DNA of 64,000 nt, taken from an uncultured Nitrosopumilales archaeon (GTDB lineage: Archaea; Thermoproteota; Nitrososphaeria; Nitrososphaerales; Gagatemarchaeaceae). Positions 8,764 to 32,033 of this stretch are shown here, piece after piece. The stretch's first letter is position 1; the number at the start of each line of letters is the position of its first letter. The translations under genes were made by a program, and so were the position numbers. The stretch spans positions 2,947 to 66,946 of the forward strand of contig CAYPSJ010000020.1 in assembly GCA_964413565.1 (NCBI GenBank), written 5' to 3'. The notes under the pieces are model-generated. The model made no database searches. It was not told the DNA's origin and saw only the letters and a program-made list of their open reading frames with translations.

Positions 8764-10371
8764 TTACTCTGGGGGTATCTCTTTGAAAACCAAGCTGAGG
8801 GGGAGCCCTCTCCTCTTGTTCCAGAAATAGCTTACAACATAGACAACGATGCCAAGGATGTATATCGTCCCGAAAACCCAGGCCGCCAAGTTGTCAAGAG
8901 GTAGGCTCCCAGATGTGTGAGCAAGATAGGTCGAATAAATCAGGTAGACGGCCGTCCCCAACCCAAGCCAGCTCAGTAGCGGCAGTCCGAACTTCTTAGT
9001 GCTGAAGTTCGCTTCAAACATGTCCCGCCTAACGTAGGGGAACAGTATGGCCGCTATCGCCGGTATTATGAAGCCGAAGGAGAATATCGCGAAAGTGAGT
9101 GTGGCAAACTCGGTCGAGCTGGCGCCAAGCATAGCCATGAGGGCGGATCCGATTATGCCACCAATGAGCACCAGCACAGTAGCAAATATGGGGGTGTGGA
9201 ACCTATCGCTTACCGATGCGAATCTGTCGGGGAGGATTCTGTCGAAGGCCCAGGCGAAGAGATATCTGGTTTGAGAGATGATTACTGCGGGAAACTCGAA
9301 GACCGTCGGTATCCATAGCGCGAGAAAGGCGGCGACGTAGAGCCAGGGTGCCTTGTACGCTATGAGGATGAAGAATGGAATGAAATTGCCTACTCCAGCG
9401 ACCGGGGGCGTTCCTCCCGCGGCTAGCGAACTCCAATTGTTCAGGAAATTCTGGCCGAAGGCCCTGACCATCAAGAAGCTGAAGAGTATGTAGTATGCGG
9501 CAATGGCAATGAGAGCGACAATGATTGTTATGGGAAGAGACCTCTTCACGTTCTTGAGCTCTCCGGTCCATCCGAGGGAGAGATTGTACCACGTGTAGGA
9601 AAACCAAGCGAATGGAAGGGCTGCGGCTGTTGCCGCCAGTCCAGCAACTGGCATGGTGATTCCGCCCTGGGCGATCACCGAAGCGTAGGTGGAGTTCGAG
9701 GATGGTACGAGTTGGTTGATGAACGAGTTGTAGGCCGTCTGGAAGGAATCGGATGTGACACCCGCCATCGCCACGAACATGATTAGCGTCGTAACCATCG
9801 CGACGACCCCGATCCAGAATATTATCCTCCAGACGTTCTTGGGACGCATCACAGACATCGCGCCGAAGACAAGAATGATCAGGACGGCTATGGCAAAGGT
9901 CCAAGCGGGACCGACGAGGGACGCGCCTTCGTTCGCGAGGCTGGTGTTGTTATAGAAGGCGCCAAACCCAGAAAGGAAGTACCCGAGATAGGACGACCCG
10001 TAGTAGGCGAATATGCCTATGTTCAGGATGAACGCGATGTTGAGCCCCCAATAGTTGACGAAGCCGATTATCGATCTTGTCGCCCTAGTGGTGAATACGT
10101 AGTCAGCACCTGCCCGCGGCAAAGACGAGCCTATGATGGTGAACATTCCTCCCGCAAGGAGCGAAGGCAAGAAAGCGACGAACATAGCCAATGGCCAGTT
10201 TGCACCAGGCGCCGTGTACATGGTACCCAGCATCAGTACAACAACGCCACCAGTTACCAGAAAGAACACTGCCATAAACGAAGACCATGCGCCCACCTCA
10301 CGCACGAGTCCCGTTGCCTCCCGTACGAACACTGTCGGCTTGGCGGTCTTGTTTTCGGTTCCCGACGCCAA
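8764..10371 (-). CDS. APC-superfamily amino acid/polyamine permease
   Basis: 535 aa with about 12-14 TM segments. The N-terminal FVREATGLVREV pattern is typical of archaeal APC permeases. Confidence 0.7.
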   Translation of the reverse strand: MASGTENKTAKPTVFVREATGLVREVGAWSSFMAVFFLVTGGVVVLMLGTMYTAPGANWPLAMFVAFLPSLLAGGMFTIIGSSLPRAGADYVFTTRATRSIIGFVNYWGLNIAFILNIGIFAYYGSSYLGYFLSGFGAFYNNTSLANEGASLVGPAWTFAIAVLIILVFGAMSVMRPKNVWRIIFWIGVVAMVTTLIMFVAMAGVTSDSFQTAYNSFINQLVPSSNSTYASVIAQGGITMPVAGLAATAAALPFAWFSYTWYNLSLGWTGELKNVKRSLPITIIVALIAIAAYYILFSFLMVRAFGQNFLNNWSSLAAGGTPPVAGVGNFIPFFILIAYKAPWLYVAAFLALWIPTVFEFPAVIISQTRYLFAWAFDRILPDRFASVSDRFHTPIFATVLVLIGGIIGSALMAMLGASSTEFATLTFAIFSFGFIIPAIAAILFPYVRRDMFEANFSTKKFGLPLLSWLGLGTAVYLIYSTYLAHTSGSLPLDNLAAWVFGTIYILGIVVYVVSYFWNKRRGLPLSLVFKEIPPE

Positions 10372-10591
10372 CTCGATAGGGACCTACGGACACACCACTT
10401 CGAGTTTGTTATTTATAGCGGCTGTCCCTAAAGAACGAGTTCGCATCTTTCCCGAACCTGTATGGCCATTGATGTTCGCTGCAGGTCAAAGACGCATTCC
10501 GACAGAAAAAGGGAAAGGGCGTTTATACAACGTAACATCGCGCACTGGTGGTGAAAGGGTGGAGAAGATAGGAGAGAGGGAGGCGGAGGCT

Positions 10592-11926
10592 ATGAAGAGG
10601 AGGACGAGGCGTTCCGCGAAGATATTCGAGGAGGCGAGCAGGTGGATGCCCTATGGTGTGAACAGCAACTACAGGTACCTCGATCCATATCCGCTTTACT
10701 TCGACAAGGGTCAGGGATCTAGGCTCTGGGATGCCGACGGGAATGAGTACGTGGACTTCAACATGGCCTTTGGTTCGCTTGGAATCGGCCACTCCCACCC
10801 AACACTCGTCAAGGCAATGCGAGACCAGGTTGGCAACGGGACCATATTCGGGTTCGAGGGAGAGGACGTCGCCCCCCTGGCCAAGACCATCTGCCAGAGA
10901 TTCATGGTGGACAAGGTCAAGCTGTCGTCGACCGGGCTCGAATCGACGATGCACGCCGTACGCCTGGCGCGCGCATACACGAAGAGGAATAAGATCCTGA
11001 AATTCGAGGGGTGCTACCACGGCTCGCACGACACTCTCATGGTCAACGTCAAGCCATCTCTCGCGAAGACGGGGAACTCGAGCGTCCCAAACATCGTCCC
11101 TTCATCACAGGGGATGCTTGAAGAGATACTCCAGAACACAATCGTGGCCCAGTTCAACAACCTCGAATCCGTAGAGAAGGCTGTGAGGAAGGACACAGAC
11201 AACCTTGCGGGAGTGATCCTGGAGCCCATTCCGATGAACATGGGCTTCGTTCCACCGAAGCGGGGATTCCTGGAGGCCCTACGCCATCTCTGGGACGAAA
11301 CAGGAGCCCTCCTAATCTTCGACGAAGTGAAAACGTGCGGGAAGTTCTACCACGGTGTAGAAGGGGAGTTCGGCGTCACGCCAGACCTCAAGACGATGGG
11401 GAAGGCAATAGGAGGAGGCTACCCGCTCTCCGTGCTAGGAGGGAAGAAGAAGATCATGGACGCCATTGTGCCAGGTGTCGTAGCCCACGCGGGGACGTTC
11501 AATTCAAACCCAGTAGCAGTAAGGGCGGGGCTGGTCACCCTCACCGAGATCCTGACCAAGGAGAAGCTGGCCCAGGCCGCCAAGCTAGGTGAAAAACTGG
11601 CTCACGGCTACACCGACATCATTGAAGACGCGAAGCTCAAGGCGAGAGTTCAAGCCATCGGAGTCAGTGGCACGATGCACTTCACAGACCACGAGGTGAC
11701 GGACTGGAGGAGCTTCCTCGACGTGAACGTAGGCACGTGGTGGACCTACTACACCGCGATGCTGAACCGGGGTGTGATTCCCATGGCCACTGGACCTGAC
11801 GAACAGTGGACAGTGTCGGTTCAGCACACCAGAGAGGATATCGAAAACCACTTGGAGGTCTTCAAGACAGTCGTGAAAGAGCTCCTGAGGTCAGAGGTCT
11901 CCATGGAGATGGTGGAGGCCATCTAG
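10592..11926 (+). CDS. class-III PLP aminotransferase, glutamate-1-semialdehyde aminomutase-like subgroup
   Basis: Internal ATG at 10592 (MKRRTRRSAKIFEEA); the longer ORF from 10133 overlaps the permease on the other strand. Motifs: DADGNEYVDF, GHSHP, FDEVKT, DLKTMGKAIGGGYP (Schiff-base Lys). Confidence 0.8.
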   Translation: MKRRTRRSAKIFEEASRWMPYGVNSNYRYLDPYPLYFDKGQGSRLWDADGNEYVDFNMAFGSLGIGHSHPTLVKAMRDQVGNGTIFGFEGEDVAPLAKTICQRFMVDKVKLSSTGLESTMHAVRLARAYTKRNKILKFEGCYHGSHDTLMVNVKPSLAKTGNSSVPNIVPSSQGMLEEILQNTIVAQFNNLESVEKAVRKDTDNLAGVILEPIPMNMGFVPPKRGFLEALRHLWDETGALLIFDEVKTCGKFYHGVEGEFGVTPDLKTMGKAIGGGYPLSVLGGKKKIMDAIVPGVVAHAGTFNSNPVAVRAGLVTLTEILTKEKLAQAAKLGEKLAHGYTDIIEDAKLKARVQAIGVSGTMHFTDHEVTDWRSFLDVNVGTWWTYYTAMLNRGVIPMATGPDEQWTVSVQHTREDIENHLEVFKTVVKELLRSEVSMEMVEAI

Positions 11927-11948
11927 AATCGCAACGATTCGCTGACTT

Positions 11949-13142
11949 TCAGTAGAACTTCTTTGTCTTGGTGAAGTGCTCCTCTGCTCTAATCTTCCTC
12001 TTACCCATCTCGACGAAGAAGGGCTCGGGATCGACCGTCGCTTCGGGCGGGAAGACTCCTGGCTCCTTGATCTTCCCTGTTCCCTGCCAGTATGAAACCA
12101 CTGCCGGTGGCACCGAGGTGTCTCTGGCGGAGGGTATGCCCCTCTTGGGGTCGTTCCACGTCATTATGTGGTAGGTGACCGTCGCAGGGGTCCCCTTCAG
12201 GGCTCCGAAAACGTCTATCCTGAAGGCGTCGTACTCGTACTCCTCCTTCGGAGGAGCGTCATGTCTTCCCTTGGATATGGCTCTCTGGTACATCGTCGTC
12301 AGGTAGTCGAGGGGCGATATCTTCTGGTCGCCAAACTGGATTCCTTCAGTCTCGGCGAATCCAAGGCCCCTCAAAGTCTTGAAGGTGGCGAAGTCTGTGC
12401 TCGGGAAGCCGATGCGGAATGTCACATTGCGGCAACCTTTGCCAACGTACCTTCCGAGGGTCGCAGGCTCGGAGTGTTTCACATAGTACGCTGTGACTTT
12501 TCCTATTGGTTCCTGCATCGTCACCGTCGTCTCCCCGGAAAGAACTGGCTGCTTGACGTGCTTCCCGTCGAGCCACATGACGGGCTCCTGCGTGAACTCG
12601 TCCATCACCGTCCGGATGGAGTAGCCTGGCCATCCCGGCTCCTTCACGGGCAGGGTGTTGCCCCAAGAGCAGTAGATATTGATCGTGTCCACCTTGTCGA
12701 GCTTCGCAGCACCGGCCGCTCCGGCGATGTTGGTCAGGCCAGGAGTGCTCCCGAGACCTATGGTCGCGTTAATCCCCGCCTTCTTCCATTCCTTGTCGAA
12801 CTCCAGCTGTTTGAGGCAGGTGTCAAAGAAGCCGCCCAGGTCTGTGTAGTGGGCGCCCGCCCTGACGCAGGCCTTCATGACTGCTATGTTGGTCTGGTAC
12901 CAGGCGCAGTTGACCACAGTATCGACCTTCTCGGACTTCGCTACTTTCGCCACTGCATCCGTGTTGCTGGCGTCCAGTTCCATAACCTGGACTTTGTTAC
13001 CAAGGTGCAGGTCGTCCACCGCCTTCTTAACGTTCCCGAGTTTCCTACTCGAGGCTACTACCTCGACCTTGGAAAACTCCACCAAGTCTTGGACGGTATA
13101 CGCCCCAATCTGACCCGACGCTCCTAAGACAAGAGTCCTCAT
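11949..13142 (-). CDS. saccharopine dehydrogenase-family NAD(P)-binding protein
   Basis: Start taken at MRTLVLGASGQIG (Rossmann GxxGxxG). GLGSTPGLTN and overall length fit Sacchrp_dh_NADP plus the C-terminal domain. Confidence 0.7.
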   Translation of the reverse strand: MRTLVLGASGQIGAYTVQDLVEFSKVEVVASSRKLGNVKKAVDDLHLGNKVQVMELDASNTDAVAKVAKSEKVDTVVNCAWYQTNIAVMKACVRAGAHYTDLGGFFDTCLKQLEFDKEWKKAGINATIGLGSTPGLTNIAGAAGAAKLDKVDTINIYCSWGNTLPVKEPGWPGYSIRTVMDEFTQEPVMWLDGKHVKQPVLSGETTVTMQEPIGKVTAYYVKHSEPATLGRYVGKGCRNVTFRIGFPSTDFATFKTLRGLGFAETEGIQFGDQKISPLDYLTTMYQRAISKGRHDAPPKEEYEYDAFRIDVFGALKGTPATVTYHIMTWNDPKRGIPSARDTSVPPAVVSYWQGTGKIKEPGVFPPEATVDPEPFFVEMGKRKIRAEEHFTKTKKFY

Positions 13143-13309
13143 GTCGCTCGGTGGGGCTCCTCTTGTCAACGTTATACACACTTTCCCGAACCGGCCCCGA
13201 CACATCGAAATGTCGAACCTTTCGAAGATTCCTACGATGTCAGATTAGGTCGAAGAAGGTCTCGGCACGTTAATAAGCGGTAGAACGCCTCCGTTGCTCG
13301 TGTTGTGAA

Positions 13310-14662
13310 ATGGCACAAGCACACACGATGATGGCGCCGCATATCGTTGTGAAGCCTCCTGGTCCCCGGTCGAAGGAGCTTCTCGGGAAACAGGAAGAGC
13401 TTGAGACAAGAGCCGTTGTCTACAGCAAGGCGTTCCCCTTCGCGATTGACTCGGCGGAGAACGCGACAGTCAAGGACGTTGACGGGAACCTATACATCGA
13501 TTGGGTCAGCGGGATCAGCGTTCTCAACCTTGGGCATCGCAATCCTGCGATAGCCAAGGCGGTAAGCGCCCAGTTCGGCAAGATCTGGCACGCACTGGAA
13601 ATCCCCACGGAGACTAGGATTGGTTTCCTCGAAAGGATGCACTCGGTTCTGCCCGGTGGTCTGAAGGGCCACGCCAAAATCATGACAACGGTCACTGGCG
13701 CCGACGCCTGCGAGACGGCGGTTGCCATCGCGAGGAGGGTCACCAACAAAAGGACGATTATTGCCTTCGAAGGCTCTTACCACGGTGTACACCAGGGTGC
13801 TGTAAGCCTCACATCTTCCCGCCACTATCTCGAATACGCAGGAGTCCCGAGGCAGGGTGTCTTCAGGCTCCCCTACCCCTATTCCTACCGCTTCCCGCTT
13901 CCTGTGGAGAAGAAGGGAGATGAGGGGAAGGTGGTCCTGCGGTATCTCGAGCATCTGGTCGAAGACGAGCACTCGGGCCTCGACGACCTCGCCGGCATCA
14001 TAGTCGAACCGGTGGAGGGCGAAGGGGGGTACATCCCTCCTCCCAGTGACTTCCTGCCGGGCCTGAGAGAGATCGCAGACAGGGCGCAGGCCCCGCTGAT
14101 CATTGACGAGGTCCAGACTGGTTTCGGAAGGACGGGGAAGTTCTGGGGGTGCGAGCTAACAGGTACGACCCCCGACATAATGTGCGTGTCGAAGTCAGTC
14201 GGCGCCGGAATCCCGCTGTCTCTCGTCGCCTACAAGGCAGAGTACGACAAGGCACTGAGCGACGGTTTCCATCTCGGCACCTACAGGGGGAACGTGCTCG
14301 CCATGGCCGCAGGCTCGGCCTCCATCGACTACATGACAACCAACAAGATACCCGAGCGGGCCGCAAAGCTCGGACTCGAAGCCAAAGCAGAGTTCGAAAA
14401 GACAGCCTCCAAGTCAAGCAACATAGGCGACGTCCGAGGGGTCGGATTCATGATAGGGAACGAAATCGTCGAATCGAAGCGGACAAGGGCGCCCTCCAAG
14501 AAGCTGGCCGTGGAGTTCAGGAGGCGCCTGTTCGAGAGCGGGCTCCTCATGCACACCTGCGGGCATTATGGGAATGTCCTCAGATTCATGGCTCCTCTGA
14601 CAATCGAAGAGCCGCTCCTGGAGAAAGGACTGGAGGTCTTCGAGCAGACCATCCTGAAGTAA
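13310..14662 (+). CDS. class-III aminotransferase (4-aminobutyrate/omega-amino acid type)
   Basis: DVDGNLYIDW, LNLGHRNP, EPVEGEGG, IIDEVQTGFGRTGK, DIMCVSKSVGAG. Confidence 0.85.
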   Translation: MAQAHTMMAPHIVVKPPGPRSKELLGKQEELETRAVVYSKAFPFAIDSAENATVKDVDGNLYIDWVSGISVLNLGHRNPAIAKAVSAQFGKIWHALEIPTETRIGFLERMHSVLPGGLKGHAKIMTTVTGADACETAVAIARRVTNKRTIIAFEGSYHGVHQGAVSLTSSRHYLEYAGVPRQGVFRLPYPYSYRFPLPVEKKGDEGKVVLRYLEHLVEDEHSGLDDLAGIIVEPVEGEGGYIPPPSDFLPGLREIADRAQAPLIIDEVQTGFGRTGKFWGCELTGTTPDIMCVSKSVGAGIPLSLVAYKAEYDKALSDGFHLGTYRGNVLAMAAGSASIDYMTTNKIPERAAKLGLEAKAEFEKTASKSSNIGDVRGVGFMIGNEIVESKRTRAPSKKLAVEFRRRLFESGLLMHTCGHYGNVLRFMAPLTIEEPLLEKGLEVFEQTILK

Positions 14663-14845: not shown

Positions 14846-16297
14846 ATGACAGTTTGTCTCGTGATTAACGGAAAGAAGGTCGAGAAGGCGGAGACGGTCC
14901 CCCTCGTCAGCCCCGGTTCAGGGAAGGTGGTCGACAGGATCAGCAAGGGGACAAAAGACGACGTGAAAGAAGCCGTCGAAGCCGCCAGGCTGGCCTTCGA
15001 GGAATGGTCTGGGACTTCACTGAACAAGCGCAGCGCGATCCTGCTCAAGGCCGCGGCACTGCTGAGGGAGCGGGGGGAGGACTTCGCCCTGACCCTCGCG
15101 ACAGAGGCGGGCAAGCCCATCAGGGACAGCAGGGTCGAGATCATCCGGGCTGCAGGCGTCTTCACTTCCGCGGCCCAGGAGGCCACGAGGATGCTCGAAG
15201 GGAGAGTCCACCGCGTTGACGCATACGAGTACCCCGCAGGGAACCAGGACCGCATGGTCTTCACGACACGAGAGCCCGTAGGCGTGGTAGCGGCGATTCT
15301 ACCATTCAATTTCCCAGTGAACTCCTTCGCCCACAAGGTCGCGCCGGCCCTTGCGGTGGGGAATACTCTGGTCGTCAAGCCCAGCATCCAGACACCCCTG
15401 TCTGCGGCGAAGATGACTGCTCTACTGTCAGACGCCGGTCTCCCCCCAGGGTGCGTCAACCTCGTGACCGGACGGAGCGCAGACATCGGCGACTCCCTCG
15501 TCGAGCACCCCGACGTCGACCTGGTCACCTTCACTGGCTCGACCGAGGTCGGCCTTCATGTGGCGTCAGAAGCGGCCATGCATGCAAAGCGATCGATAAT
15601 GGAACTTGGCGGATCTGACCCCGTGATCGTGTTCGATGACGCAGATTTGGAAAGAGCGACCAAGACAGCGGTGAAGGGAAGGTTTGACTACGCAGGTCAG
15701 AACTGCAACTCGAGCAAGCGATTCTTCGTCCAGAGTGCAGTCGCAGACAAGTTCATCCGAGGCTTCGTTGACCTCACATCTAAGCTCAGGGTGGACGACC
15801 CACTTCTCGAAGCGACTGACGTGGGGCCGGTGATTAGCCAGTCTGCGGTGGAGGACATGACAAAGTTCGTCGACGACGCTGTCGCAAAGGGAGGGAAGCT
15901 TCTCATCGGGGGGAAGAGAATCGAACGACAGGGGAGCTACTTCGAGCCGACGGTCGTTAGCGACGTCTCCACCGACGTCGCAGTCATGAAGGAGGAGGTC
16001 TTCGGACCAATCGCTCCAATATCGACGTTCGAGACCCCTGATGAAGCACTGAATATGGCCAACGCGTCAGAGTATGGGCTGCAGGCTGCTATCCACACCA
16101 ATGACTACAAGATGGCGCTGAATCTCGCCAAGAGAATACACGCGGGCTCCGTAATCGTCAACGACTCGACCAGACTCAGGTGGGATGCTCTCCCCTTCGG
16201 CGGCCGAAGAAAGACAGGTTTCGGAAGGGAAGGGGTAAAGGACACTATGCTCGAGATGACCGAGCAGAAACTCGTGAGTCTGAATCTAGGAAGCTGA
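14846..16297 (+). CDS. NAD(P)-dependent aldehyde dehydrogenase
   Basis: FNFPVN, MELGGSDP, AGQNCNSSKR (catalytic Cys), EEVFGP. Confidence 0.85.
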   Translation: MTVCLVINGKKVEKAETVPLVSPGSGKVVDRISKGTKDDVKEAVEAARLAFEEWSGTSLNKRSAILLKAAALLRERGEDFALTLATEAGKPIRDSRVEIIRAAGVFTSAAQEATRMLEGRVHRVDAYEYPAGNQDRMVFTTREPVGVVAAILPFNFPVNSFAHKVAPALAVGNTLVVKPSIQTPLSAAKMTALLSDAGLPPGCVNLVTGRSADIGDSLVEHPDVDLVTFTGSTEVGLHVASEAAMHAKRSIMELGGSDPVIVFDDADLERATKTAVKGRFDYAGQNCNSSKRFFVQSAVADKFIRGFVDLTSKLRVDDPLLEATDVGPVISQSAVEDMTKFVDDAVAKGGKLLIGGKRIERQGSYFEPTVVSDVSTDVAVMKEEVFGPIAPISTFETPDEALNMANASEYGLQAAIHTNDYKMALNLAKRIHAGSVIVNDSTRLRWDALPFGGRRKTGFGREGVKDTMLEMTEQKLVSLNLGS

Positions 16298-16365
16298 ACG
16301 TCAGAGTGGTCTAGACATCGAACCCGGAGGGACCAGTGTCCCACCCCGTAGTCGCGAATTGGAAG

Positions 16366-19405: not shown

Positions 19406-19756
19406 TTGGCATTCCAAAGCGGTAGGAAGTACCGCTTGAAGCAGTTGGAGCCAGAGGGTCAAACTCCGCTTCCAAATTCAGAGCCTGATAGAGCGTTTGC
19501 TGCTCCATTCGGGCTGATTCCGCTCGCCGTACCATACGAAGACTCTCCTCCTGAGGCGAGAATACTGAATGCAGTTGCGGTCGGACTCGTAAGAGAGGGG
19601 AGGAACGATGTCGCTCTTGAGTTGGGAATACCGAAAGCTGACTTCACAAGAGCACTGCGTTCGCTGAAGAATGAAGGCGCAATATACGTCGGAGCTGGCG
19701 GAAGGTACAGACTCAGCTTCCACACTTCTAACTTCCCTAATATCGTCGCAAAGTAG
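19406..19756 (+). CDS. possible small winged-helix DNA-binding protein
   Basis: Non-ATG start in the ORF track. The C-terminal half ARILNAVAVGL...DVALELGIPKADFTRALRSLKNEGAIYV looks like a wHTH. It follows an AT-rich stretch with TTTAAAAG. Confidence 0.3.
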   Translation: MAFQSGRKYRLKQLEPEGQTPLPNSEPDRAFAAPFGLIPLAVPYEDSPPEARILNAVAVGLVREGRNDVALELGIPKADFTRALRSLKNEGAIYVGAGGRYRLSFHTSNFPNIVAK

Positions 19757-24101: not shown

Positions 24102-26045
24102 CTAGCTTGTGTAGCTTATGGTGTTGTAATACAGGAAATAGCCCATACCTGACCCTGCAGGATTCGGAATTATGCCCGTGACGCTGTTAGCCGTTACAGC
24201 CATGAATTCAGGGACATAGAGCCAGATGTCTGTGTAGTTCTGGTACATATCCTGCGTTATGCTGTGAAACGCCTCGATTATTGTTGAACTATTCAGCGCT
24301 GTTGAAGCCTGGGTGGTCCAATTGATGACCTGAGGGTCTACGTAGGTGCTCGATCCTATATCATTGGTGCCTGTGAAGTAGTAAACGTAGTCTATGCTCG
24401 CCGTGTAGTCCTCACTGTAGTAGCCAAATCCCATTGGAGGGACACCTGTGGTCTGGTTTGAGGAATCGATGTCTGTCGCATACTGCCTGAAGGGCAAGGC
24501 CGTCAATGCAGTTGGTATCCCAATTGAACCCAAATTACTGCTTATGATTTCAGCGGCCCCCTGGTCCGTGGGATTGTCAGAATCGTACAGGAACGGGACA
24601 GTCGGAAACTGCTTCCCGCCCGGATTGAGAGTGGTCCCGTTGGGCAGGTGCGATACGAACCCGGCCTGGGCGAGTGAGACTGCTGCTTGGACCGGGTTGT
24701 ACTGATACGGGCTCAGCCCCGCTGTCGATTCGTTGTAATACTGGAAGCCCGGAGGAACAGGGCCAACCCACTGCTGGGCATGGCCGTTAAAGACTATCCG
24801 AATGATATCCTGGTAGTCTATGGCATTGGCTATCGCCTTCCTGACATCGAGATTACTGAAGAGGGGGAAAGTCGTAGTGTCCATGTACAAATAGTGAACG
24901 TCTTCTGACGAGCCAAAGACGATTGGGAGAACAGTCGTCGTGACTCCGGAGATGGGTGCCGTGACGTTGTAGTAAGTGACCGGGACACTAATCATCTGAA
25001 CCGTTCCCGCCCTAAGATCGGCAATGCTCGTAGCCGAGTCCTTGTAGTAGATGACTATTCTATTGAGAATCGCCGGAGCGATGGCGTTGTTCAGTTGCGA
25101 CTTCGGAAGGCTGTTCGCCCAGTAATTCGGATTCTTCACCAAGCTCACACTCTGTCCCAGCACCCAGGATTGCAGTTCATAGAATCCGGTGCCAAGCGCA
25201 TTGGTCGTCATGTAATCGTTCTCAACATCTGCATGCACCCCTCCATGGCTAAACACGAAAGCTGGGTCGACAGCATACGCCATTGGAGTTACGAGCGTCG
25301 CAAGGAATGCGGAGTAGGGCGCGGGTCCGTTGTAGCCATAACCTAGGTTGAACTGAATTGCGGACGCATTCAGAACGACGACCGACTGTTCGGGGTTGCT
25401 CATAACGGTAAGATTGCTGGCCGACGGATTGAAGTAGTTGATTGAATTCAACATTGAGTCCGTCACATTGAACGTCACTCCATTACCGGCAGCGAGGTTC
25501 TGGCTTAGGATCCAAGTTGGTGACTGGTCCATCACTATAGTCCTGTAGACGGAGTACCACATGACGTAGGCATTGAACGGATCACCGTTGCTGAAAGTCA
25601 CGTCGGGTCTTAGTTCGAACGTGTAATTCATACCGTTGGGCGAGGTGGTCCACGCACTTGCGAGCACACCCTCGTAGGTTGTGTAGCTGCTGCTATTGTA
25701 CGTCAGAAGGCCTTGATAGATCTGCTCGACAATTTCCCAGCCGGACGTCTCGTACGTCACGGCAGGATCCAAATAATCAGGCTCGGTCAACTCGTCTACT
25801 TGGAGCGAGGTCTTTGTCGGAGTGGTCTGTGACGTAGTTGTCGTAGACGACGTGGACGAAGTGGTGGAACTCGAAGTCGTAGAACTTGACGTCGTGGAAC
25901 TCGACGTGGTAGAACCTGTCGATGTCGTAGAGCTCTTGCTTGATACAAGACCGAAGTAGATACCAGCCGACGCAACTAGAATAATTACTATTAACACAAC
26001 CCCGAGAATCGTCCTTGAAACTGCTCTCTTTCGAAGAGGTTTCAA
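24102..26045 (-). CDS. ABC transporter substrate-binding protein, family 5 (peptide/nickel), membrane-anchored via N-terminal TM and Ser/Thr linker
   Basis: 647 aa with an N-terminal TM helix, a 46-residue S/T tract, then an SBP_bac_5-like body (LDPAVTYETSGWEIVEQIYQGLL). Confidence 0.8.
   Translation of the reverse strand: MKPLRKRAVSRTILGVVLIVIILVASAGIYFGLVSSKSSTTSTGSTTSSSTTSSSTTSSSTTSSTSSTTTTSQTTPTKTSLQVDELTEPDYLDPAVTYETSGWEIVEQIYQGLLTYNSSSYTTYEGVLASAWTTSPNGMNYTFELRPDVTFSNGDPFNAYVMWYSVYRTIVMDQSPTWILSQNLAAGNGVTFNVTDSMLNSINYFNPSASNLTVMSNPEQSVVVLNASAIQFNLGYGYNGPAPYSAFLATLVTPMAYAVDPAFVFSHGGVHADVENDYMTTNALGTGFYELQSWVLGQSVSLVKNPNYWANSLPKSQLNNAIAPAILNRIVIYYKDSATSIADLRAGTVQMISVPVTYYNVTAPISGVTTTVLPIVFGSSEDVHYLYMDTTTFPLFSNLDVRKAIANAIDYQDIIRIVFNGHAQQWVGPVPPGFQYYNESTAGLSPYQYNPVQAAVSLAQAGFVSHLPNGTTLNPGGKQFPTVPFLYDSDNPTDQGAAEIISSNLGSIGIPTALTALPFRQYATDIDSSNQTTGVPPMGFGYYSEDYTASIDYVYYFTGTNDIGSSTYVDPQVINWTTQASTALNSSTIIEAFHSITQDMYQNYTDIWLYVPEFMAVTANSVTGIIPNPAGSGMGYFLYYNTISYTS
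25806..25943 (-). repeat. coding low-complexity Ser/Thr tract with imperfect tandem nucleotide repeats
   Basis: Encodes SSKSSTTSTGSTTSSSTTSSSTTSSSTTSSTSSTTTTSQTTPTKTS. An imperfect roughly 30-nt unit (gtggaactcgaagtcgtagaacttgacgtc / gtggaactcgacgtggtagaacctgtcgat) is tandemly duplicated. Confidence 0.8.
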
Positions 26046-26213: not shown

Positions 26214-27386
26214 TCATTCGCCGTTCTGAATCTTCGTAGTTTCCGTCCGAGATACGTGTGTGTCGACCCCGTTAAGGCCGAGTTCCCTAAGTATTGGAAG
26301 TGGGTCCAGGCACTCTGGGGGGAGAACCCCTTTCTGCCTTATCTTCCCTTCCGCCAACATTCTCACGAATACGGCTGGCACGACTCCGGTAAGGAATGAC
26401 GTCCCGTTCTCGTGCAACGTCCTGTAGGAACCCTCATGTGAAGCCATGGTGCTTAGCTTGTAGGCCACGTCCGTGCCTCCGTTCCTCCCTTTTACCTCTA
26501 CCACAATACCGGTGTTACCCTTTACCGTTTTCGAAACGGATACTGGCGTTGGAATCACTGAATTGAGCAGTTCCATGGGCGCTACCTTCGAGCCTCTGAT
26601 CTCGACGGGCTTTGTTTCAAGCAGCCCCACCTTCTTCAGGGTAAGCAGAGCAGAGACAAATTCATCCGCCAGGGCGAGTTTGAAGTCCACGTACTTGACG
26701 CCTTTTCCAATGTATTCTGGTAGTGTCATGACTTCCTCGTGGTCAACGAGGTAGACAGGCTGCGCTCCAATCGGCTCGGGAAACTCGTACATCTCCTTCC
26801 CGCTCAGGGAGGGAGAGGACACTCTCCTTCCGTCCACGAAGGTGCGCGGGGAATCGAGAATCTCGGAAAAGAAGACCTCCGGGGAGAAGAGTAACATGAA
26901 ATCGTACTTGGAACTTGAGGAGTTCTCTCCGTCTCTGACCCTGATCTCTTCGACCGTCGTCAGTCTGTCCGCTGCGTACCTTGCGTAGATGTTTGATAGT
27001 CCCGGGTCCTCGCCCAGGCCGGGGACGGCGAGCAGTCCCGATTCTTTCCAGGCCTTGTCCTGGGCAAGTTGTTCGATGAGCCCGTTGCCTGCTAGGTCGA
27101 CGTAGTTCGCACCGTTCGCGAGAGATAGGTCCATCATCTGATGGTTGAATCTGGGATGGCCTGCGTTGATTACTGCGTCCTTGCCCTCGATGACGGCTTC
27201 CAGCTCTTCTTTGTTATTTGCATCGATTTTCACGACTCTAGTCCTGCCGGGTGACAACTTCGCTATCTCGAGGGCATGCGCAGTGTTCTTGTCAGCCATG
27301 GTCACGGACTCGATTGCCTTGCCTTCGAGAAGAACCTGTGCAATTACGGAGCCTACTGCGCCCAGCCCAAGGACCAGGGCCTTCAC
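26214..27386 (-). CDS. saccharopine dehydrogenase-family protein (paralog 1 of a divergent pair)
   Basis: MKALVLGLGAVGSVIA Rossmann start, then GEDPGLSNIYARYAADRLTTVEEIRVRDGE. Confidence 0.75.
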   Translation of the reverse strand: MKALVLGLGAVGSVIAQVLLEGKAIESVTMADKNTAHALEIAKLSPGRTRVVKIDANNKEELEAVIEGKDAVINAGHPRFNHQMMDLSLANGANYVDLAGNGLIEQLAQDKAWKESGLLAVPGLGEDPGLSNIYARYAADRLTTVEEIRVRDGENSSSSKYDFMLLFSPEVFFSEILDSPRTFVDGRRVSSPSLSGKEMYEFPEPIGAQPVYLVDHEEVMTLPEYIGKGVKYVDFKLALADEFVSALLTLKKVGLLETKPVEIRGSKVAPMELLNSVIPTPVSVSKTVKGNTGIVVEVKGRNGGTDVAYKLSTMASHEGSYRTLHENGTSFLTGVVPAVFVRMLAEGKIRQKGVLPPECLDPLPILRELGLNGVDTHVSRTETTKIQNGE

Positions 27387-27482: not shown

Positions 27483-28652
27483 ATGGACGTTCTAGTTGTC
27501 GGCGTTGGATCGGTTGGCTCGGTAATAGCTCAGTACCTTCAGCAAGACAGCTCTATTGGTTCTCTCACCTTAGCAGACAAGGACGTTTCTCGAGCGCGCA
27601 GCATTGCGGGGAAGCGCGGAAAGACGAAGGTGGAGGCTGTCAGAATAGATGCCAGCGAGCCTAAGCAGCTAGAAAGACTTATGGAGGGAAAGGGCATCGT
27701 CGTAAACTCTGGCCATCCCATTTTCAATGAACCTCTGATGCGACTCTCTAAGGAACTCGGCATCGCCTATGTCGACCTTGCAAGCAGCAAGATGAAGGAT
27801 CAGCTGGCTCAAGACAAAGAGTTCCGAGAAGCGAACACTCTCGGTGTCGTTGGGATGGGAGAAGACCCCGGCCTTTCGAACATCTACGCAAGGTACGCAG
27901 CGGACAGACTGACGACGGTCAAGGAAATCAAGGTGCGAGATGGAGAATTCTCTGTGAGCAAGCTGCGGGGCTTCGTGCCCCTCTTCTCCCCGGAGGTCTT
28001 CTTTGAGGAGGTCCTTACGGAAGCCATCATTTTCGCTGACGGCAAAGTCAAGCACCTCGCACCCATGAGCGAGAGAGAAGTGTACGACTTTCCACCACCA
28101 ATGGGGAGACAGACGGTCTACGCATTGGAACACGAGGAGGTGCAGACACTACCATACTACATCAAGAAAGGCGTCCAGTATGTGGACTTCAAACTGGCCC
28201 TCTCTGACGAGTTCGTCAGCAACGTAAACCTTCTCAAGGAACTAGGACTGCTCAGCACGAAGCCTGTCAATGTGAAAGGAACACACGTCCGACCCTTCGA
28301 TGTCTTCATAGCGACCCTCCCTATCCCTGTCTCAGTCGCTTCCGCACTGAGCGGTCACGCGGGCATATCCGTGGAGGTGAGCGGGATTTCTCGCGGGAGA
28401 GAGACCAAATACACTCTGAGCACCCAGATGTCTCATGAGGAAGCATACAAGAGGTTCAAATCGAACGCAACGTCCTTCCTCACCGGAATAGTGCCAGCAG
28501 TGTATGTCTCGACCTTCGCCAAAGGCAAGATCAAGCAGAAGGGAGTCATCCCAGCTGAGATGTTGGACGCAGACCTGATGCTTGGCGAGCTGTCAAAGGC
28601 AGGCGTCAGGACGAGCTTGTCGAAGTCCGCAGAGGAAACAATCGCCAGCTGA
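27483..28652 (+). CDS. saccharopine dehydrogenase-family protein (paralog 2 of a divergent pair)
   Basis: MDVLVVGVGSVGSVIA, then GEDPGLSNIYARYAADRLTTVKEIKVRDGE. It is collinear with the neighbour along its full length. Confidence 0.75.
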   Translation: MDVLVVGVGSVGSVIAQYLQQDSSIGSLTLADKDVSRARSIAGKRGKTKVEAVRIDASEPKQLERLMEGKGIVVNSGHPIFNEPLMRLSKELGIAYVDLASSKMKDQLAQDKEFREANTLGVVGMGEDPGLSNIYARYAADRLTTVKEIKVRDGEFSVSKLRGFVPLFSPEVFFEEVLTEAIIFADGKVKHLAPMSEREVYDFPPPMGRQTVYALEHEEVQTLPYYIKKGVQYVDFKLALSDEFVSNVNLLKELGLLSTKPVNVKGTHVRPFDVFIATLPIPVSVASALSGHAGISVEVSGISRGRETKYTLSTQMSHEEAYKRFKSNATSFLTGIVPAVYVSTFAKGKIKQKGVIPAEMLDADLMLGELSKAGVRTSLSKSAEETIAS

Positions 28653-28683
28653 GCCTTACAAATAGCGATGCCCGGGAAGCCGA

Positions 28684-30060
28684 CTATGAAAGCCGCTTGA
28701 GTGCTTCTTCGAACGCTTGGACTGTGGTGGCGATGTCTTCCTCGGTGTGGACTGTTGAAACTGCAACTCTTTCGTAGTTGTCGGGGTGCAGGTAAACTCC
28801 ACCGTCGAGTAGTAGCTGGTGGAGCGTCCGGAACTTGTCCCAATCAATCAGGAGGCTTTCCCTGTAATTCGATATCTTGGAGTGTTTCGTGAAACAGAGC
28901 GAGAAAATCCCTGGTACGCTTTGTATGCATGCCTTCTGCTTCGCCGCCTGAACGGCACGGGACAGACCCGCCGTGAGCTTCTCTGTGTTCTCCTTCAGCG
29001 TCTTCAGGGCGCGGTAGTCGTCCGCTGCAAGGACATCCAGGTTCGCCAAAGTTCCTGCAAGTGTCAACGAGTTCGCGAAGTATGTTCCTCCATAGGAAAC
29101 CTTCCCTGGGGCGAGCAGGTCCATGTACTCTTTCTTGCCGGACAGCGCAGCAATCGGGAGCCCCCCTCCTAGCGCCTTGCCCCATGTGGAGAGATCCGGA
29201 GTCACGCCGTATACTTGTTGAGCTCCGCCAGGCGCCATTCTGAAGCCTGTGATCACTTCGTCGAAGATGAGAAGAGCGTCGTTGGAGGTAGCAATCTCTC
29301 TGACCGCCTTGGGGTAGTCGGCTTCCGGTGGAATCACGGTCGAGTTCGCCATCACGGGCTCCATGATTATTGCTGCAATTTCGTTTCTATGTCGCTTCAT
29401 TATCCTCTCCAGTGCTTTCGCATTGTTCCAGGGAGATACCACGACTGTATCCAGAACCATTGACGGTATCCCTGCCGAGTAGGGAAGAGACCTTGGATAC
29501 TCTTCCATTCCTGCTACCACAGGAGGTGCTTCGACACTCACCATCGCGTAGTCGTGCTGTCCGTGGTAGTGACCTTCGAACTTCAATATGGTGTCCTTCC
29601 CCGTAGCCGCCCTGGCAATTCTGATCGCGTTGCTTGTTGCATCGGCCCCACCATTGGCGAAGACAACCATGTCTGATGTGGGAACGAATTGCTTGAACTT
29701 CTTCGCGAGTTCCACTTCGAGCTCCGTTGGCGCACCAAACATCATTCCTTCCTGTGCCTGTCGCCTGATTGCTTCGACTATCTTCGGATGGGCGTGACCG
29801 TTGATTAGAGCACCATACCCGAGTAGGTAATCCGTGTACGTGTTGCCATCGACATCAGTGATTTTGGACCCATATCCGCTTTGCATGTAAAGCGGGTATG
29901 GTTCGTAAGAAGCCCACCGAATGATGGAACTGCAACCGCCTGGGATGAGCTGGACGGCCTGCTCATGCAGCGCTGCGGTCTTCGCAGTGCTGCGAACCTT
30001 TGAAGCGGCTACTGTCGGCGTAACGACCGTCTGTTCAGGAGGCTGGGTTGTGGAAGACAA
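28684..30060 (-). CDS. class-III PLP aminotransferase, glutamate-1-semialdehyde aminomutase-like subgroup
   Basis: DVDGNTYTDY, NGHAHP, FDEVITGFR, DLSTWGKALGGGLP. Confidence 0.8.
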   Translation of the reverse strand: MSSTTQPPEQTVVTPTVAASKVRSTAKTAALHEQAVQLIPGGCSSIIRWASYEPYPLYMQSGYGSKITDVDGNTYTDYLLGYGALINGHAHPKIVEAIRRQAQEGMMFGAPTELEVELAKKFKQFVPTSDMVVFANGGADATSNAIRIARAATGKDTILKFEGHYHGQHDYAMVSVEAPPVVAGMEEYPRSLPYSAGIPSMVLDTVVVSPWNNAKALERIMKRHRNEIAAIIMEPVMANSTVIPPEADYPKAVREIATSNDALLIFDEVITGFRMAPGGAQQVYGVTPDLSTWGKALGGGLPIAALSGKKEYMDLLAPGKVSYGGTYFANSLTLAGTLANLDVLAADDYRALKTLKENTEKLTAGLSRAVQAAKQKACIQSVPGIFSLCFTKHSKISNYRESLLIDWDKFRTLHQLLLDGGVYLHPDNYERVAVSTVHTEEDIATTVQAFEEALKRLS

Positions 30061-30074
30061 GCCCTCACTCTCCT

Positions 30075-30284
30075 CTAGGCTCCTCCGTTTCCGTTCTGAG
30101 AGCTCCTCTTGTGCTTCTTACCCAAGCGCTTCCTCGATACAACCTTCAAACGGATGAGAACGTAGTTCCCTTCCTCAATCCGGAGCAGCTTTCGTATCTC
30201 TTCAGGAATAGTGAGCCTTCCTCCCTTAATGACTTCGGCAATGAAAGGCATCTCTTCCTCGGCCACCGTTTCAGCCAATGACAA
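30075..30284 (-). CDS. AbrB/MazE/SpoVT-type DNA-binding domain protein
   Basis: 69 aa. GGRLTIPEEIRKLLRIEEGNYVLIRL is a SpoVT-AbrB swapped-hairpin motif, followed by a basic tail. It lies 14 nt upstream of the aminotransferase on the same strand. Confidence 0.65.
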   Translation of the reverse strand: MSLAETVAEEEMPFIAEVIKGGRLTIPEEIRKLLRIEEGNYVLIRLKVVSRKRLGKKHKRSSQNGNGGA

Positions 30285-30530
30285 TCCAATTCTCCCCCAC
30301 TTACTGCATTATCGAGAATTGTATAAAAACGTTCTTTTCCTCCATATTTATACGTTGACTGCTGTTTTGCGACCTCCTGCGTATCTCGCAACGTGTTCTA
30401 TACATAATTCCTACTAATACACCATTTTTTGGAGCCCTAATACGTTTGGGGCGGATACCCGGTTTGGCATCGACCGTGGTTTTTCTCGAAACCCTTATCT
30501 CAACCAGAACCCCTTCCGTGACCGATTGCT
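30285..30530. promoter_or_regulatory. AT-rich divergent control region between the abrB-like gene and the aldehyde dehydrogenase
   Basis: 246 nt, clearly AT-richer than the surroundings. It carries several TATA-like elements (GTATAAAAAC, ATATTTATAC, TCTATACATAA) and recurring ATACGTT/AAACGTT motifs. Confidence 0.5.
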
Positions 30531-32033
30531 ATGCTCGCGACTCAGCAACGGATGATGGTTGGGGGGGAGTGGGTCTCTGCGGCCAGCGGTGAGACCTACG
30601 ACGTTCTGAATCCTGCGACCACCGAAGTCATGGCCAAGGTGCCGAAGGGGGGTAGGGAGGATGCCTCCCGGGCCGTCGACGCTGCGAGGGAGGCGTTCGA
30701 CAAGGGACCCTGGCCCAAGATGACCCCTGCTGACCGCGCGAAGATCATCTGGAAAATCGCTGATCTGGTCGAAGCCGACATCGACAGGCTCGCCCTTCTG
30801 GAGACCATGAACCAGGGCAAGACGATCAAGATGGCCCACGACAACGACTTCCCCTCTGGGATTGACAACATCAGGTTCATGGCCGGGGCGTCAAGGAATC
30901 TCGAGGGAAAGGCGGCTTCAGAATACACAGGGCTAGGCACCACCATATTCAGAAGGGAACCTGTGGGCGTCGTAGTATGCATCACACCCTGGAACTACCC
31001 TTGGATGATGGCCGTCTGGAAGGCCGTCCCTGCCCTCGCTGCAGGGAACACGATCATAATCAAACCTGCCAGCGTGACACCCCTGACGACGATCGAGTTC
31101 GCAAAGGTGATGGAGAAGGCGGGCGTCCCCAAGGGGGCAGTCAGTGTCGTGACCGGCCCCGGCTCGACGGTCGGGGAGGCACTCGTGACCCACCCAGGGG
31201 TGGACGTGGTGGGGCTCACGGGGGACACGGTCACAGGAAGCAGAATAATGGACCTGGCCTCTCACACCGTCAAGCGACTTCAGCTTGAGCTAGGAGGGAA
31301 GGCGCCTTTCATCGTTCTTGAGGACGCGGACATCGATGCCGCCACGGAAGGGGCAGTGGTGGGCGGCTACGTCAACGGCGGCCAGGACTGCACCGCGGCG
31401 ACCAGGGTCTACGTCCATGAGAGCGTGTACGACAGATTCATGAAGCGTTTCATCGAGAAGGCAGGCAAGATACGGATCGGGGATCCCACAAAGCGTGATG
31501 TGGACATGGGTCCACTCGTCTCTGAGGCACAGCGCCACAAGGTGGAAGAGATGGTCAGTGCTGGTCAGAGTGAGGGAGCGAAGCTGGTCATCGGAGGCAA
31601 GCGCCCGTCTCTCCCTGGTCCTCTGGGCAAAGGATTCTACTACGAACCAACCATATTCACCGGAGTTCAGCAGAACATGCGAATCTGTCAGGAGGAGATA
31701 TTCGGTCCCGTGATCTGCGTCTCGACCATAACTTCATTCGAGGATGCCATAGAGAAGGCGAACGACGTGATCTACGGGCTCGCCGCATCCATCTGGACAA
31801 GGGATGTGAGCAAGGCAATGAAAGCCGGCGCGCAACTGAGATTCGGGGATGTCTGGGTCAACGACCATCTCCCGCTGGCGTCAGAGATGCCGCATGGAGG
31901 GTTCAAGCAGAGCGGCCATGGGAAGGACCTGTCGGCCTACACATTCGACGACTACACCCAGGTCAAGTTCGTGTACATCGACACGACCGATGCCGTCCGG
32001 AAGCCCTGGTACTACACCATCTACGGCGACTAA
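30531..32033 (+). CDS. aldehyde dehydrogenase, gamma-aminobutyraldehyde/betaine-aldehyde dehydrogenase-like
   Basis: ITPWNYP, QLELGGKAP, NGGQDCTAATR (the GQDCTAA catalytic-Cys context resembles PatD/YdcW-type enzymes), EEIFGP. Confidence 0.8.
   Translation: MLATQQRMMVGGEWVSAASGETYDVLNPATTEVMAKVPKGGREDASRAVDAAREAFDKGPWPKMTPADRAKIIWKIADLVEADIDRLALLETMNQGKTIKMAHDNDFPSGIDNIRFMAGASRNLEGKAASEYTGLGTTIFRREPVGVVVCITPWNYPWMMAVWKAVPALAAGNTIIIKPASVTPLTTIEFAKVMEKAGVPKGAVSVVTGPGSTVGEALVTHPGVDVVGLTGDTVTGSRIMDLASHTVKRLQLELGGKAPFIVLEDADIDAATEGAVVGGYVNGGQDCTAATRVYVHESVYDRFMKRFIEKAGKIRIGDPTKRDVDMGPLVSEAQRHKVEEMVSAGQSEGAKLVIGGKRPSLPGPLGKGFYYEPTIFTGVQQNMRICQEEIFGPVICVSTITSFEDAIEKANDVIYGLAASIWTRDVSKAMKAGAQLRFGDVWVNDHLPLASEMPHGGFKQSGHGKDLSAYTFDDYTQVKFVYIDTTDAVRKPWYYTIYGD

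Follow-up and report, generated by a model that had tools for sequence, protein, structure and literature searches.

A cluster of carboxyspermidine dehydrogenase-like enzymes, aminotransferases and transporters in a Gagatemarchaeaceae archaeon: a possible entry into archaeal polyamine catabolism

What compound is degraded by a gene cluster that gathers four class-III aminotransferases, three aldehyde dehydrogenases (ALDHs) and three proteins of the saccharopine dehydrogenase family within 23 kb, and by which reaction does that compound enter the pathway? The question is raised by positions 8764-32033 of a 64,000-nucleotide stretch (the window, the whole of the DNA analysed) of contig CAYPSJ010000020.1, from an uncultured Nitrosopumilales archaeon placed by GTDB in the Gagatemarchaeaceae of the Nitrososphaerales; exact matches to it lie in ENA metagenome assemblies, and its nearest named relatives are "Nitrososphaerales archaeon" metagenome-assembled genomes, part of them peat-derived. 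The genes of the window were obtained by listing and translating open reading frames (ORFs), followed by Pfam and NCBIfam scans, and these scans recover the enzymes listed above, an APC permease and an Opp-type transporter where an earlier, sequence-only reading of the stretch had placed them. The cluster also holds the enzyme classes of the putrescine/GABA (gamma-aminobutyrate) and beta-alanine/malonate-semialdehyde routes, as that reading had maintained. It likewise contains no decarboxylase, agmatinase or amine oxidase, and because these are missing the entry into the pathway must be unusual. The proposal of a multi-branch catabolic island for amines and omega-amino acids with dedicated uptake is supported, and the region is in all probability a functionally coupled amine-catabolic island. 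Tentatively, we propose that two of the dehydrogenases, here called SdhA and SdhB, represent a previously unrecognised NAD+-dependent polyamine (secondary-amine) dehydrogenase built on the scaffold of carboxyspermidine dehydrogenase (CASDH). It would open the first described archaeal polyamine catabolic pathway, which Nitrososphaerales of soil and peat would share with Caldarchaeales, Bathyarchaeia and Thermoplasmata and which either PotABCD-type importers or a dedicated Opp-type subfamily would feed.

The identity of the saccharopine dehydrogenase-like proteins is central to this proposal. SdhA (26214-27386, minus strand) and SdhB (27483-28652, plus strand) are transcribed divergently and are 52% identical to each other, and the third member, SdhC, is encoded at 11949-13205 on the minus strand, its start being more probably at 13142, giving 397 aa, because its homologues measure 397 aa. 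All three consist of the Pfam domains Sacchrp_dh_NADP and Sacchrp_dh_C (PF03435 and PF16653), and public records label proteins of their clade "saccharopine dehydrogenase" or "lysine 6-dehydrogenase". When searched by sequence against the PDB, SdhB and SdhC match only four solved proteins, all of the CASDH type (4INA, 4RL6, 8DEB and 8H4Z), and SdhA also matches CASDH structures only. The matches of SdhB include 4INA (6.6e-41), 8DEB and 8H4Z, and the CASDH-type matches of SdhC range from 4e-18 to 1e-14. LYS9-type saccharopine reductase, human AASS and Pyrococcus lysine 6-dehydrogenase (LysDH) were matched in this search by neither SdhB (E < 1e-3) nor SdhC (E < 1e-2). The AlphaFold model of SdhB (mean predicted local distance difference test, pLDDT, 93.7) gives template-modelling (TM) scores in Foldseek of 0.90-0.93 against the CASDH structures 8H4Z/8H52, 4INA and 8DEB. 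With LysDH the score is 0.74-0.76, with saccharopine dehydrogenase/reductase 0.72-0.79 and with homospermidine synthase 0.66-0.69. Identity to the solved CASDHs is just 22-27% in the Foldseek alignments, and the NF043000 scores (149 bits for SdhB, 115 for SdhA and 49 for SdhC) all lie far under the equivalog cut-off of 800.

The active site agrees with the fold. In the numbering of the B. fragilis enzyme, the CASDH family is defined by a His228-Glu229-Glu230 triad together with Glu188 and Ser144, the triad being absent from LysDH and saccharopine reductase (PMC10413350), and mutagenesis of carboxyaminopropylagmatine dehydrogenase (CAPADH) has shown that the equivalents of Asp140, Asp166, Glu188, His228 and Glu229 are required (PMC10599626). 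In a residue-by-residue alignment, SdhA, SdhB and every relative of theirs, which together form clade I, hold the triad, Glu188, Ser144, Asp140 and Asp166 invariant. Clade I departs from bacterial CASDH at other positions: Phe139 is replaced by Glu, Cys167-Asn168 by Gly-Glu/Asp and Thr178-Asn179 by x-Leu, and Arg187 is not conserved. SdhC falls in a second, looser clade (clade II), which has His-Ser-Glu in place of the triad and is without Glu229 and Asp140.

The coenzyme site separates the clades in a similar manner. More specifically, in all clade-I sequences covering this site strand beta2 ends in an Asp ("[A/G]D"), whereas the bacterial NADPH-dependent biosynthetic CASDHs carry "ASR[T/S]" after beta2 and SdhC an NADP-type "SSRK". 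In Rossmann folds, an aspartate in this place is the classical mark of a preference for NAD rather than NADP and is typical of catabolic dehydrogenases; because of this residue, the cofactor signature of SdhA and SdhB points to an oxidative, catabolic role. Sequence, predicted fold and catalytic residues place both proteins in the CASDH family. They are nevertheless best classed as a new archaea-specific subfamily, neither CASDH proper nor saccharopine/lysine dehydrogenases, because the fold and the catalytic residues agree with CASDH while the coenzyme signature, the equivalog score and the pairing with a decarboxylase do not. Canonical CASDH biosynthesis is unlikely in view of the NAD-type signature and the missing decarboxylase partner, and a lysine or saccharopine reading of SdhA-C is rejected in view of sequence, fold and active site.

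The distribution of these proteins is revealing of the company they keep. One genome per GTDB species was scanned with two clade-specific peptide motifs, and the resulting 80 loci belong to Nitrososphaerales, Caldarchaeales, Bathyarchaeia and Thermoplasmata, the sole non-archaeal one being a 5-kb contig binned as Caldimicrobium. Neighbourhoods were analysed at 83 loci (numbered with the prefix L) by calling ORFs, labelling them by the proteins of the window and clustering the remainder; association counts were taken over those 48 loci, from Nitrososphaeria, Bathyarchaeia and Thermoplasmata, in which the dehydrogenase is flanked by 5 kb or more on each side, neighbours being those within 8 kb. 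A class-III aminotransferase lies within this distance at 41 of the 48 loci and the binding protein of an ABC transporter, of Opp or PotD/PotF type, at 34, with both present at 32. An ALDH is found at 19 loci, and none of the three at five. A second CASDH-like gene is present at 26 of all 83 loci. Neither a carboxyspermidine decarboxylase nor any other recurring decarboxylase occurs within 8 kb at these 83 loci, a count that a singleton could escape and that covers the neighbourhoods, not the rest of the genomes.

Relatives whose SdhB is 64-91% identical to that of the window have the same genes in a shuffled order. Their constant core consists of the divergent SdhA/SdhB pair, a glutamate-1-semialdehyde (GSA) aminomutase-like aminotransferase with its AbrB gene, a PatD-like ALDH and the Opp system. 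In the lineage of L003 and L004 the Opp system stands between the Sdh pair and the GSA-like aminotransferase, with an orthologue of the (methyl)malonate-semialdehyde dehydrogenase (MMSDH) at the far end; in L090 the left arm of the island (APC permease, GSA1, SdhC, two aminotransferases and one ALDH) is kept as a block beside the Opp genes. The genes had been expected to be co-localised in relatives, and they are; their retention despite rearrangement speaks for function rather than mere synteny.

The association extends well beyond the Nitrososphaerales. A 21-kb stretch of a different phylum, L051 (1-21143; Thermoplasmata archaeon UBA61, DASW01000004.1), holds a nearly complete enzyme set: two Sdh genes, a GSA-like aminotransferase, an Opp system with two binding proteins, an MMSDH fragment, ALDHs resembling the PatD-like (57%) and the 14846 (48%) enzymes of the window, and aminotransferases resembling those at 13310 and 16366. 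L091 (8826-17839) has one Sdh gene of each clade, I and II, with a 4-base overlap between them; next come PotB, PotC, PotA and PotD-like genes and, 6 kb away, a Peptidase_C26 gene that is PuuD-like. Because of the overlap, the two dehydrogenases are presumably co-translated, and they may form a hetero-oligomer. In Bathyarchaeia an aminotransferase gene is followed by MMSDH, clade-I Sdh, an SdhC with 77% identity to the window copy, and Opp; the SdhC-type gene is operonic with clade-I Sdh there, as in L091. SdhC is 76-78% identical to its orthologues in five Bathyarchaeia loci (L034, L036, L037, L040 and L049), with neighbouring genes at 42-62%. Transfer of the module between phyla was considered for these values; homologues within the Nitrososphaerales are closer (88-93%), so unusually slow evolution explains them equally.

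The transporter of the window comprises the ATPases OppD (19968-21074) and OppF (about 21100-22095) on the plus strand, each with ABC_tran and oligo_HPY domains, and on the minus strand the BPD_transp_1 permeases OppC (22137-23042) and OppB (23039-24088), which overlap by 4 bases, and a family-5 substrate-binding protein with a Ser/Thr-rich linker (24102-26045; SBP_bac_5, 2.4e-57). By Pfam this is the complete Opp/Dpp component set, and OppD and OppF homologues in relatives are 77-91% identical. The binding protein falls far under all NCBIfam equivalog cut-offs (best NikA, 92 bits, and Opp4A, 88 bits) and has no close characterised relative, the best solved one reaching only E 2e-21; "peptide" is no more than a family label in its case. 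Copies 52-59% identical adjoin clade-I Sdh in Bathyarchaeia. The type of transporter varies with lineage, being Opp/SBP_bac_5 in Nitrososphaerales and most Thermoplasmata and PotABCD-like in Caldarchaeales and many Bathyarchaeia. A PotD-like representative from L014 scores best with PotF (168 bits) and PotD (148 bits), both under the equivalog cut-offs, and the strongest solved matches of the L091 binding protein (1e-60 to 1e-49) are named as binders of polyamines, putrescine or spermidine/putrescine (SpuD/E, PotF, PotD), except for the first, whose label reads just "Lmo0810 protein". Neither the binding protein of the window nor the PotD/PotF-type transporters of Caldarchaeales and Bathyarchaeia favour the earlier view that the substrates are released from imported peptides. 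The second uptake protein, an APC-superfamily permease (8764-10371, minus strand; AA_permease_2, PF13520, 1.7e-28), has weak NCBIfam subfamily matches only and is a candidate importer of an amine or omega-amino acid; it adjoins the GSA1-like aminotransferase in L090 too.

The four aminotransferases match Aminotran_3 (PF00202) at E 1e-66 to 1e-114 in the Pfam scan and fall into two pairs. GSA1 (10592-11926, plus strand; 1.4e-66), which may start at a GTG at 10559 (455 aa) judging from the length of its L090 homologue, and GSA2 (28684-30060, minus strand) resemble GSA aminomutase, as had been supposed, and their top-scoring NCBIfam models are HemL. GSA2 passes the subfamily model NF000818 (426 against 398) and fails the HemL equivalog TIGR00713 (412 against 527.3), and GSA1 fails both (392 and 380). 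In the PDB, HemL comes first (about 1e-89), followed by 6K8H, labelled only "Aminotransferase class-III", which we take to be an omega-transaminase, the beta-transaminases 2YKU and 6IZ9 and the beta-phenylalanine aminotransferase 4AO9. No hem genes are present in the cluster or among the adjoining genes of the window. The occurrence of two copies in one catabolic cluster, the AbrB gene that precedes one of them and the lack of hem genes near by speak against HemL. The GSA-like genes are HemL-like, yet under the equivalog threshold and outside any hem operon, and the interpretation of the region as a catabolic island stands. GSA1 orthologues (46-65% identity) adjoin clade-I Sdh in Nitrososphaerales, Caldarchaeales, Bathyarchaeia and Thermoplasmata, and GSA2 homologues 79-95% identical lie beside the Sdh pair in L003, L005, L009 and L010.

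The other pair is closer to GABA aminotransferases. The enzyme at 13310-14662 (plus strand; 2.4e-96) is a candidate diamine or omega-amino-acid transaminase; its best NCBIfam models (PRK05769 and PRK06938) are all under cut-off, and its PDB matches comprise 7VNO, the archaeal racemase 9WRF, GabT structures and diaminobutyrate transaminases. Orthologues with 51-73% identity occur in L010, L051, L068, L078, L081 and L088. The ArgD/GabT/putrescine aminotransferase-like enzyme at 16366-17676 (minus strand; 9.7e-114) is under cut-off with all NCBIfam models and matches 7VNO (1.8e-82), archaeal racemases, GabT and the putrescine aminotransferase 4UOX (5e-69); its type is the commonest neighbour of clade-I Sdh, at 39 of 83 loci. 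The best match of both, 7VNO, is a GABA aminotransferase-like protein of Pyrococcus horikoshii and presumably an archaeal ornithine aminotransferase. The substrates of these two enzymes cannot be read from sequence.

The three ALDHs belong to different subgroups, in accordance with the earlier calls of an MmsA-like and a PatD-like enzyme. The enzyme at 17811-19340 (plus strand), in whose translation the motifs GGAKN and GQRCLAG are seen, is a CoA-acylating MMSDH of MmsA type (TIGR01722, 473.9 against a cut-off of 448.5), and its orthologues adjoin the Sdh pair in Bathyarchaeia. The PatD-like enzyme at 30531-32033 (plus strand; PF00171, 2.2e-175) passes the aminobutyraldehyde dehydrogenase subfamily model NF010000 barely (617.7 against 615) and remains under the equivalog TIGR03374 (467 against 909) and the betaine-aldehyde dehydrogenase model (529 against 669); its homologues are 84-94% identical in Nitrososphaerales relatives and 57-59% in the Thermoplasmata loci L041 and L051. 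The enzyme at 14846-16297 (plus strand; PF00171, 8e-161) attains no NCBIfam cut-off and is conserved in L090 and L051. Its best PDB match (1.2e-164) is 8HAP, labelled "aldehyde dehydrogenase", which may be a Sulfolobus-type broad-range ALDH. The 14846 enzyme is a candidate succinate-semialdehyde or general semialdehyde dehydrogenase.

We infer the direction of the reaction, its substrate and the assignment of paralogues to steps as follows. The Opp-type ABC system, and likewise the APC permease, would import a polyamine-type compound. SdhA and SdhB, perhaps together with SdhC, would run the chemistry of CASDH oxidatively, dehydrogenating a C-N bond with NAD+ to an imine whose hydrolysis would leave an amino-aldehyde together with a shorter amine; in the case of spermidine these would be 3-aminopropanal or 4-aminobutanal and putrescine or 1,3-diaminopropane. 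The PatD-like ALDH would then oxidise the amino-aldehyde to beta-alanine or GABA, and the class-III aminotransferases would act both on diamines, giving amino-aldehydes, and on beta-alanine or GABA, giving malonate or succinate semialdehyde, from which the MmsA-type ALDH would form acetyl-CoA and the third ALDH succinate. These downstream steps are suggested by family assignments. The presence of four aminotransferases and three ALDHs agrees with the number of steps that the spermidine route requires, and the constant core of the relatives would cover the first three steps and the variable genes the downstream ones. The AbrB-type and winged-helix proteins may act as local regulators. In a variant equally compatible with the residues that bind aspartate semialdehyde, the terminal amine would first be made a carboxylate, or the substrate would already be carboxylated, and the dehydrogenase would directly free malonate, succinate or aspartate semialdehyde. 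That the island takes up and degrades a polyamine-type compound holding a secondary amine is an evenly balanced proposition, and for polyamine cleavage as the specific entry reaction the chances are a little short of even.

Several observations weigh against this proposal. Clade I contains no characterised enzyme, and the published CASDH assays found cover the reductive, biosynthetic direction only; the conserved equivalents of Asp166 and Glu188, proposed to hold aspartate semialdehyde, would suit a carboxylated substrate just as well. The role of SdhC is ambiguous given its NADP-type signature and the loss of Glu229 and Asp140. The window transporter is of the Opp type, its binding protein being distant from characterised ones, and the GSA-like aminotransferases are nearest to genuine HemL, GSA2 passing one HemL subfamily model. 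Comparison of the intergenic regions of the cluster and alignment of the SdhA/SdhB intergenic region in five relatives yielded no common operator, only TATA-like boxes being kept. Moreover, clade-I Sdh in Thermoplasmata has other neighbours, namely CrtI/amine-oxidase-like flavoproteins at 13 loci, GbcA-like Rieske oxygenases at 8 and Amidohydro_2 proteins at 9 (for example L055 11184-12767, L060 5426-6595 and L081 17481-18335). This hints at other, possibly methylated, amine substrates there, and because of these neighbours the clade may serve more than one amine substrate.

Alternatively, the same catabolic logic may apply to a substrate with an N-(3-amino-3-carboxypropyl) or other carboxyalkyl group, for example a carboxy-polyamine, a nicotianamine- or opine-type metallophore or an oxidised polyamine such as putreanine, from which the CASDH-like enzymes would free aspartate, malonate or succinate semialdehyde and an amine, leaving the products to the ALDHs and aminotransferases. 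The residues proposed to hold aspartate semialdehyde in CASDH and CAPADH (Asp166, Glu188, His228 and Glu229) are indeed kept, the 13310 aminotransferase resembles diaminobutyrate transaminases, and family-5 binding proteins of Opp/Nik type include importers of opine-type metallophores, to which the weak NikA and CntA matches would correspond. Direct release of malonate semialdehyde also fits the Bathyarchaeia, because MMSDH there directly adjoins the Sdh pair without an amino-aldehyde dehydrogenase. However, PotD/PotF-type binding proteins take the place of the Opp system at 15 loci, metallophore biosynthesis genes are absent nearby, and the loss of Arg187 conservation and the acidic residues at the positions of Phe139 and Asn168, assumed to line the pocket, would suit a more cationic substrate, so that a carboxyalkyl substrate is unlikely, though of real weight. 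Rather more improbable is an anabolic or salvage role, in which the CASDH-like enzymes would condense imported diamines and aspartate semialdehyde, or else shorten exogenous polyamines or turn one into another, and so provide the spermidine that hypusine requires, the other enzymes of the cluster serving elsewhere. The characterised members of the family are all biosynthetic (PMC10413350, PMC10599626, PMC11999265), linkage to polyamine importers suits salvage as well, and SdhC has an NADP-type signature; against these stand the NAD-type Asp of clade I, NF043000 scores of 49-149 bits against a cut-off of 800, the absence of a recurring decarboxylase near the 83 loci, and the tight linkage of irreversible ALDHs, MMSDH among them, and of a local regulator.

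The Pfam assignment of SdhA-C to the saccharopine dehydrogenase family and the Opp/Dpp-type transporter would also be expected of a pathway that degrades lysine, ornithine or other peptide-derived amino acids through saccharopine dehydrogenase or LysDH, with the class-III enzymes as omega-aminotransferases or racemases as in Thermococcales; the aminotransferases at 13310 and 16366, which match 7VNO best, match the archaeal racemases 9WRF and 9WQZ as well. Such a pathway, which the sequence-only reading had entertained for lysine and saccharopine, is very improbable: the lysine-pathway enzymes are unmatched by sequence at E < 1e-3 and fit the fold clearly more poorly, LysDH and saccharopine reductase are without the His-Glu-Glu triad that SdhA and SdhB keep (PMC10413350), and Pfam finds no lysine-ketoglutarate reductase domain in the cluster. 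The binding protein, furthermore, is far from characterised peptide binders, and PotD/PotF-type transporters substitute for Opp elsewhere. Finally, the genes may share no pathway at all and represent a chance or historical pile-up of housekeeping paralogues (HemL, ArgD-like enzymes and generic ALDHs) beside a peptide transporter. GSA2 does pass the HemL subfamily model, and transcription appears to proceed singly or in pairs from separate TATA-like promoters. Yet relatives show the same combination again in rearranged form, as do three further classes of archaea, and both GSA-like copies stay under the HemL equivalog cut-off with no hem genes adjacent, which leaves mere accident very improbable. 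Catabolic cleavage of a polyamine by NAD-type CASDH-like enzymes is thus the reading that we prefer.

Two small genes of the island are putative regulators. The sequence-only reading had proposed two small DNA-binding proteins; one of them, an 81-aa ORF at 30146-30391 on the minus strand, is in the wrong frame, the real gene being an AbrB/MazE-type gene of 69 aa at 30075-30284 on the same strand (PF04014, 7e-4), which lies 14 bases upstream of GSA2. AbrB homologues of 68-72 aa, 72-95% identical, occupy the same position in L003, L004, L005, L009 and L010. The other is probably a winged-helix-like protein of 79 aa (19517-19756, plus strand) with a weak TrmB match (0.0068), and a 79-aa gene 86% identical is found at the same position in L005 and L006. 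By inspection of the sequence, the island genes carry separate TATA-like promoters, with transcription singly or in pairs, and the intergenic comparison neither shows nor excludes a common regulon. An Rfam scan of the window gave no non-coding RNA match.

The genes that flank the island are of a mixed nature. Upstream (5570-8744) the proteins are one of 323 aa, which matches metallophosphoesterases no more than weakly, and one of 264 aa, which has no Pfam match, and several ORFs overlap at 5570-6758, probably not all of them genes. Downstream, a radical-SAM protein with a HMPTM-type zinc ribbon (33022-34605, plus strand) flanks the island and also adjoins the cluster in L009; beside it, a 427-aa protein (34631-35914, minus strand) combines Fer4_15 with two HTH domains of AsnC type. 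A trio of DAO-family FAD oxidoreductase, FGGY kinase and FAD-linked oxidase (37650-41454, plus strand) is kept beside the cluster in L009 too. A tRNA-Ala(GGC) of 94 nt, whose length suggests an intron, is found at 41865-41958 on the minus strand and is overlapped on the same strand by a 210-aa ORF (41696-42328). Another homologue of diamino-acid dehydrogenases, with a 2,4-diaminopentanoate dehydrogenase C-terminal domain (DAP_DH_C, 6e-43), lies 15 kb off the island (46777-47784, plus strand). Four consecutive genes at 48798-52797 (plus strand) encode a Fer4_22 protein, a NAD_binding_1/DHODB Fe-S protein, an Oxidored_q6 small subunit and a NiFeSe_Hases large subunit; together they resemble a soluble [NiFe]-hydrogenase of group-3 type, an unusual feature in a genome of the Nitrososphaerales type.

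Microbes are known to start the breakdown of polyamines with oxidases or dehydrogenases of flavin or haem type, or by gamma-glutamylation, acetylation or transamination. The literature searches yielded no paper that places CASDH-like enzymes in the amine catabolism of archaea and no account of archaeal polyamine breakdown, and in the genome paper on the soil family Gagatemarchaeaceae there is no mention of polyamines or of saccharopine dehydrogenase. If the proposal is correct, polyamine breakdown would gain a new route, opened by a nicotinamide-dependent enzyme that descends from the biosynthetic CASDH scaffold. This would explain how polyamines could serve as carbon and nitrogen sources for heterotrophic archaea that are uncultured but abundant in peat, soil, sediment and hot springs, and would correct a widespread annotation as "saccharopine dehydrogenase" or "lysine 6-dehydrogenase". 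The main value added here is the placement of the dehydrogenases as an NAD-type CASDH-like clade linked across phyla to aminotransferases, ALDHs and polyamine-type transporters. The reading is testable on a compact gene set, namely the dehydrogenases (two or three of them), a single binding protein and a single ALDH.

Compared with known systems, the island combines features that are elsewhere separate. With CASDH and carboxynorspermidine dehydrogenase (EC 1.5.1.43) and with CAPADH, clade I shares the three-domain fold, the catalytic residues (PMC10413350, PMC10599626) and, by analogy, a chemistry on a secondary amine that links an aminopropyl-type unit to an amine. It differs in being archaeal, in its NAD-type Asp in place of the NADPH-type Ser-Arg and in having no decarboxylase partner, and it sits among uptake systems, aminotransferases and ALDHs, so that the direction is probably oxidative. 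LYS9, the saccharopine dehydrogenase domain of AASS and LysDH have PF03435, PF16653 and the superfamily fold in common with SdhA-C, but they match neither significantly in sequence nor as well in structure, and they are without the triad. The resemblance to degradation of beta-alanine and 3-aminoisobutyrate (MmsA/IolA) lies in a CoA-acylating ALDH of MmsA type beside a class-III aminotransferase; here, however, MMSDH is one branch of a larger island, and in Bathyarchaeia it stands directly beside the CASDH-like pair. The PatA/PatD-GabT/GabD pathway of E. coli and the SpuC/PauC pathway of Pseudomonas likewise employ a PatD-type amino-aldehyde dehydrogenase, class-III omega-aminotransferases and a semialdehyde dehydrogenase, and relatives of the window add PotD/PotF-type uptake and, in L091, a PuuD-like gene. 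It is the entry that differs from bacterial polyamine catabolism, which begins with SpdH or gamma-glutamylation: the window is without a flavin or haem spermidine dehydrogenase, an amine oxidase, a gamma-glutamyl-polyamine synthetase or an acetyltransferase, and in an archaeal host the entry position is occupied by a CASDH-like pair of NAD type.

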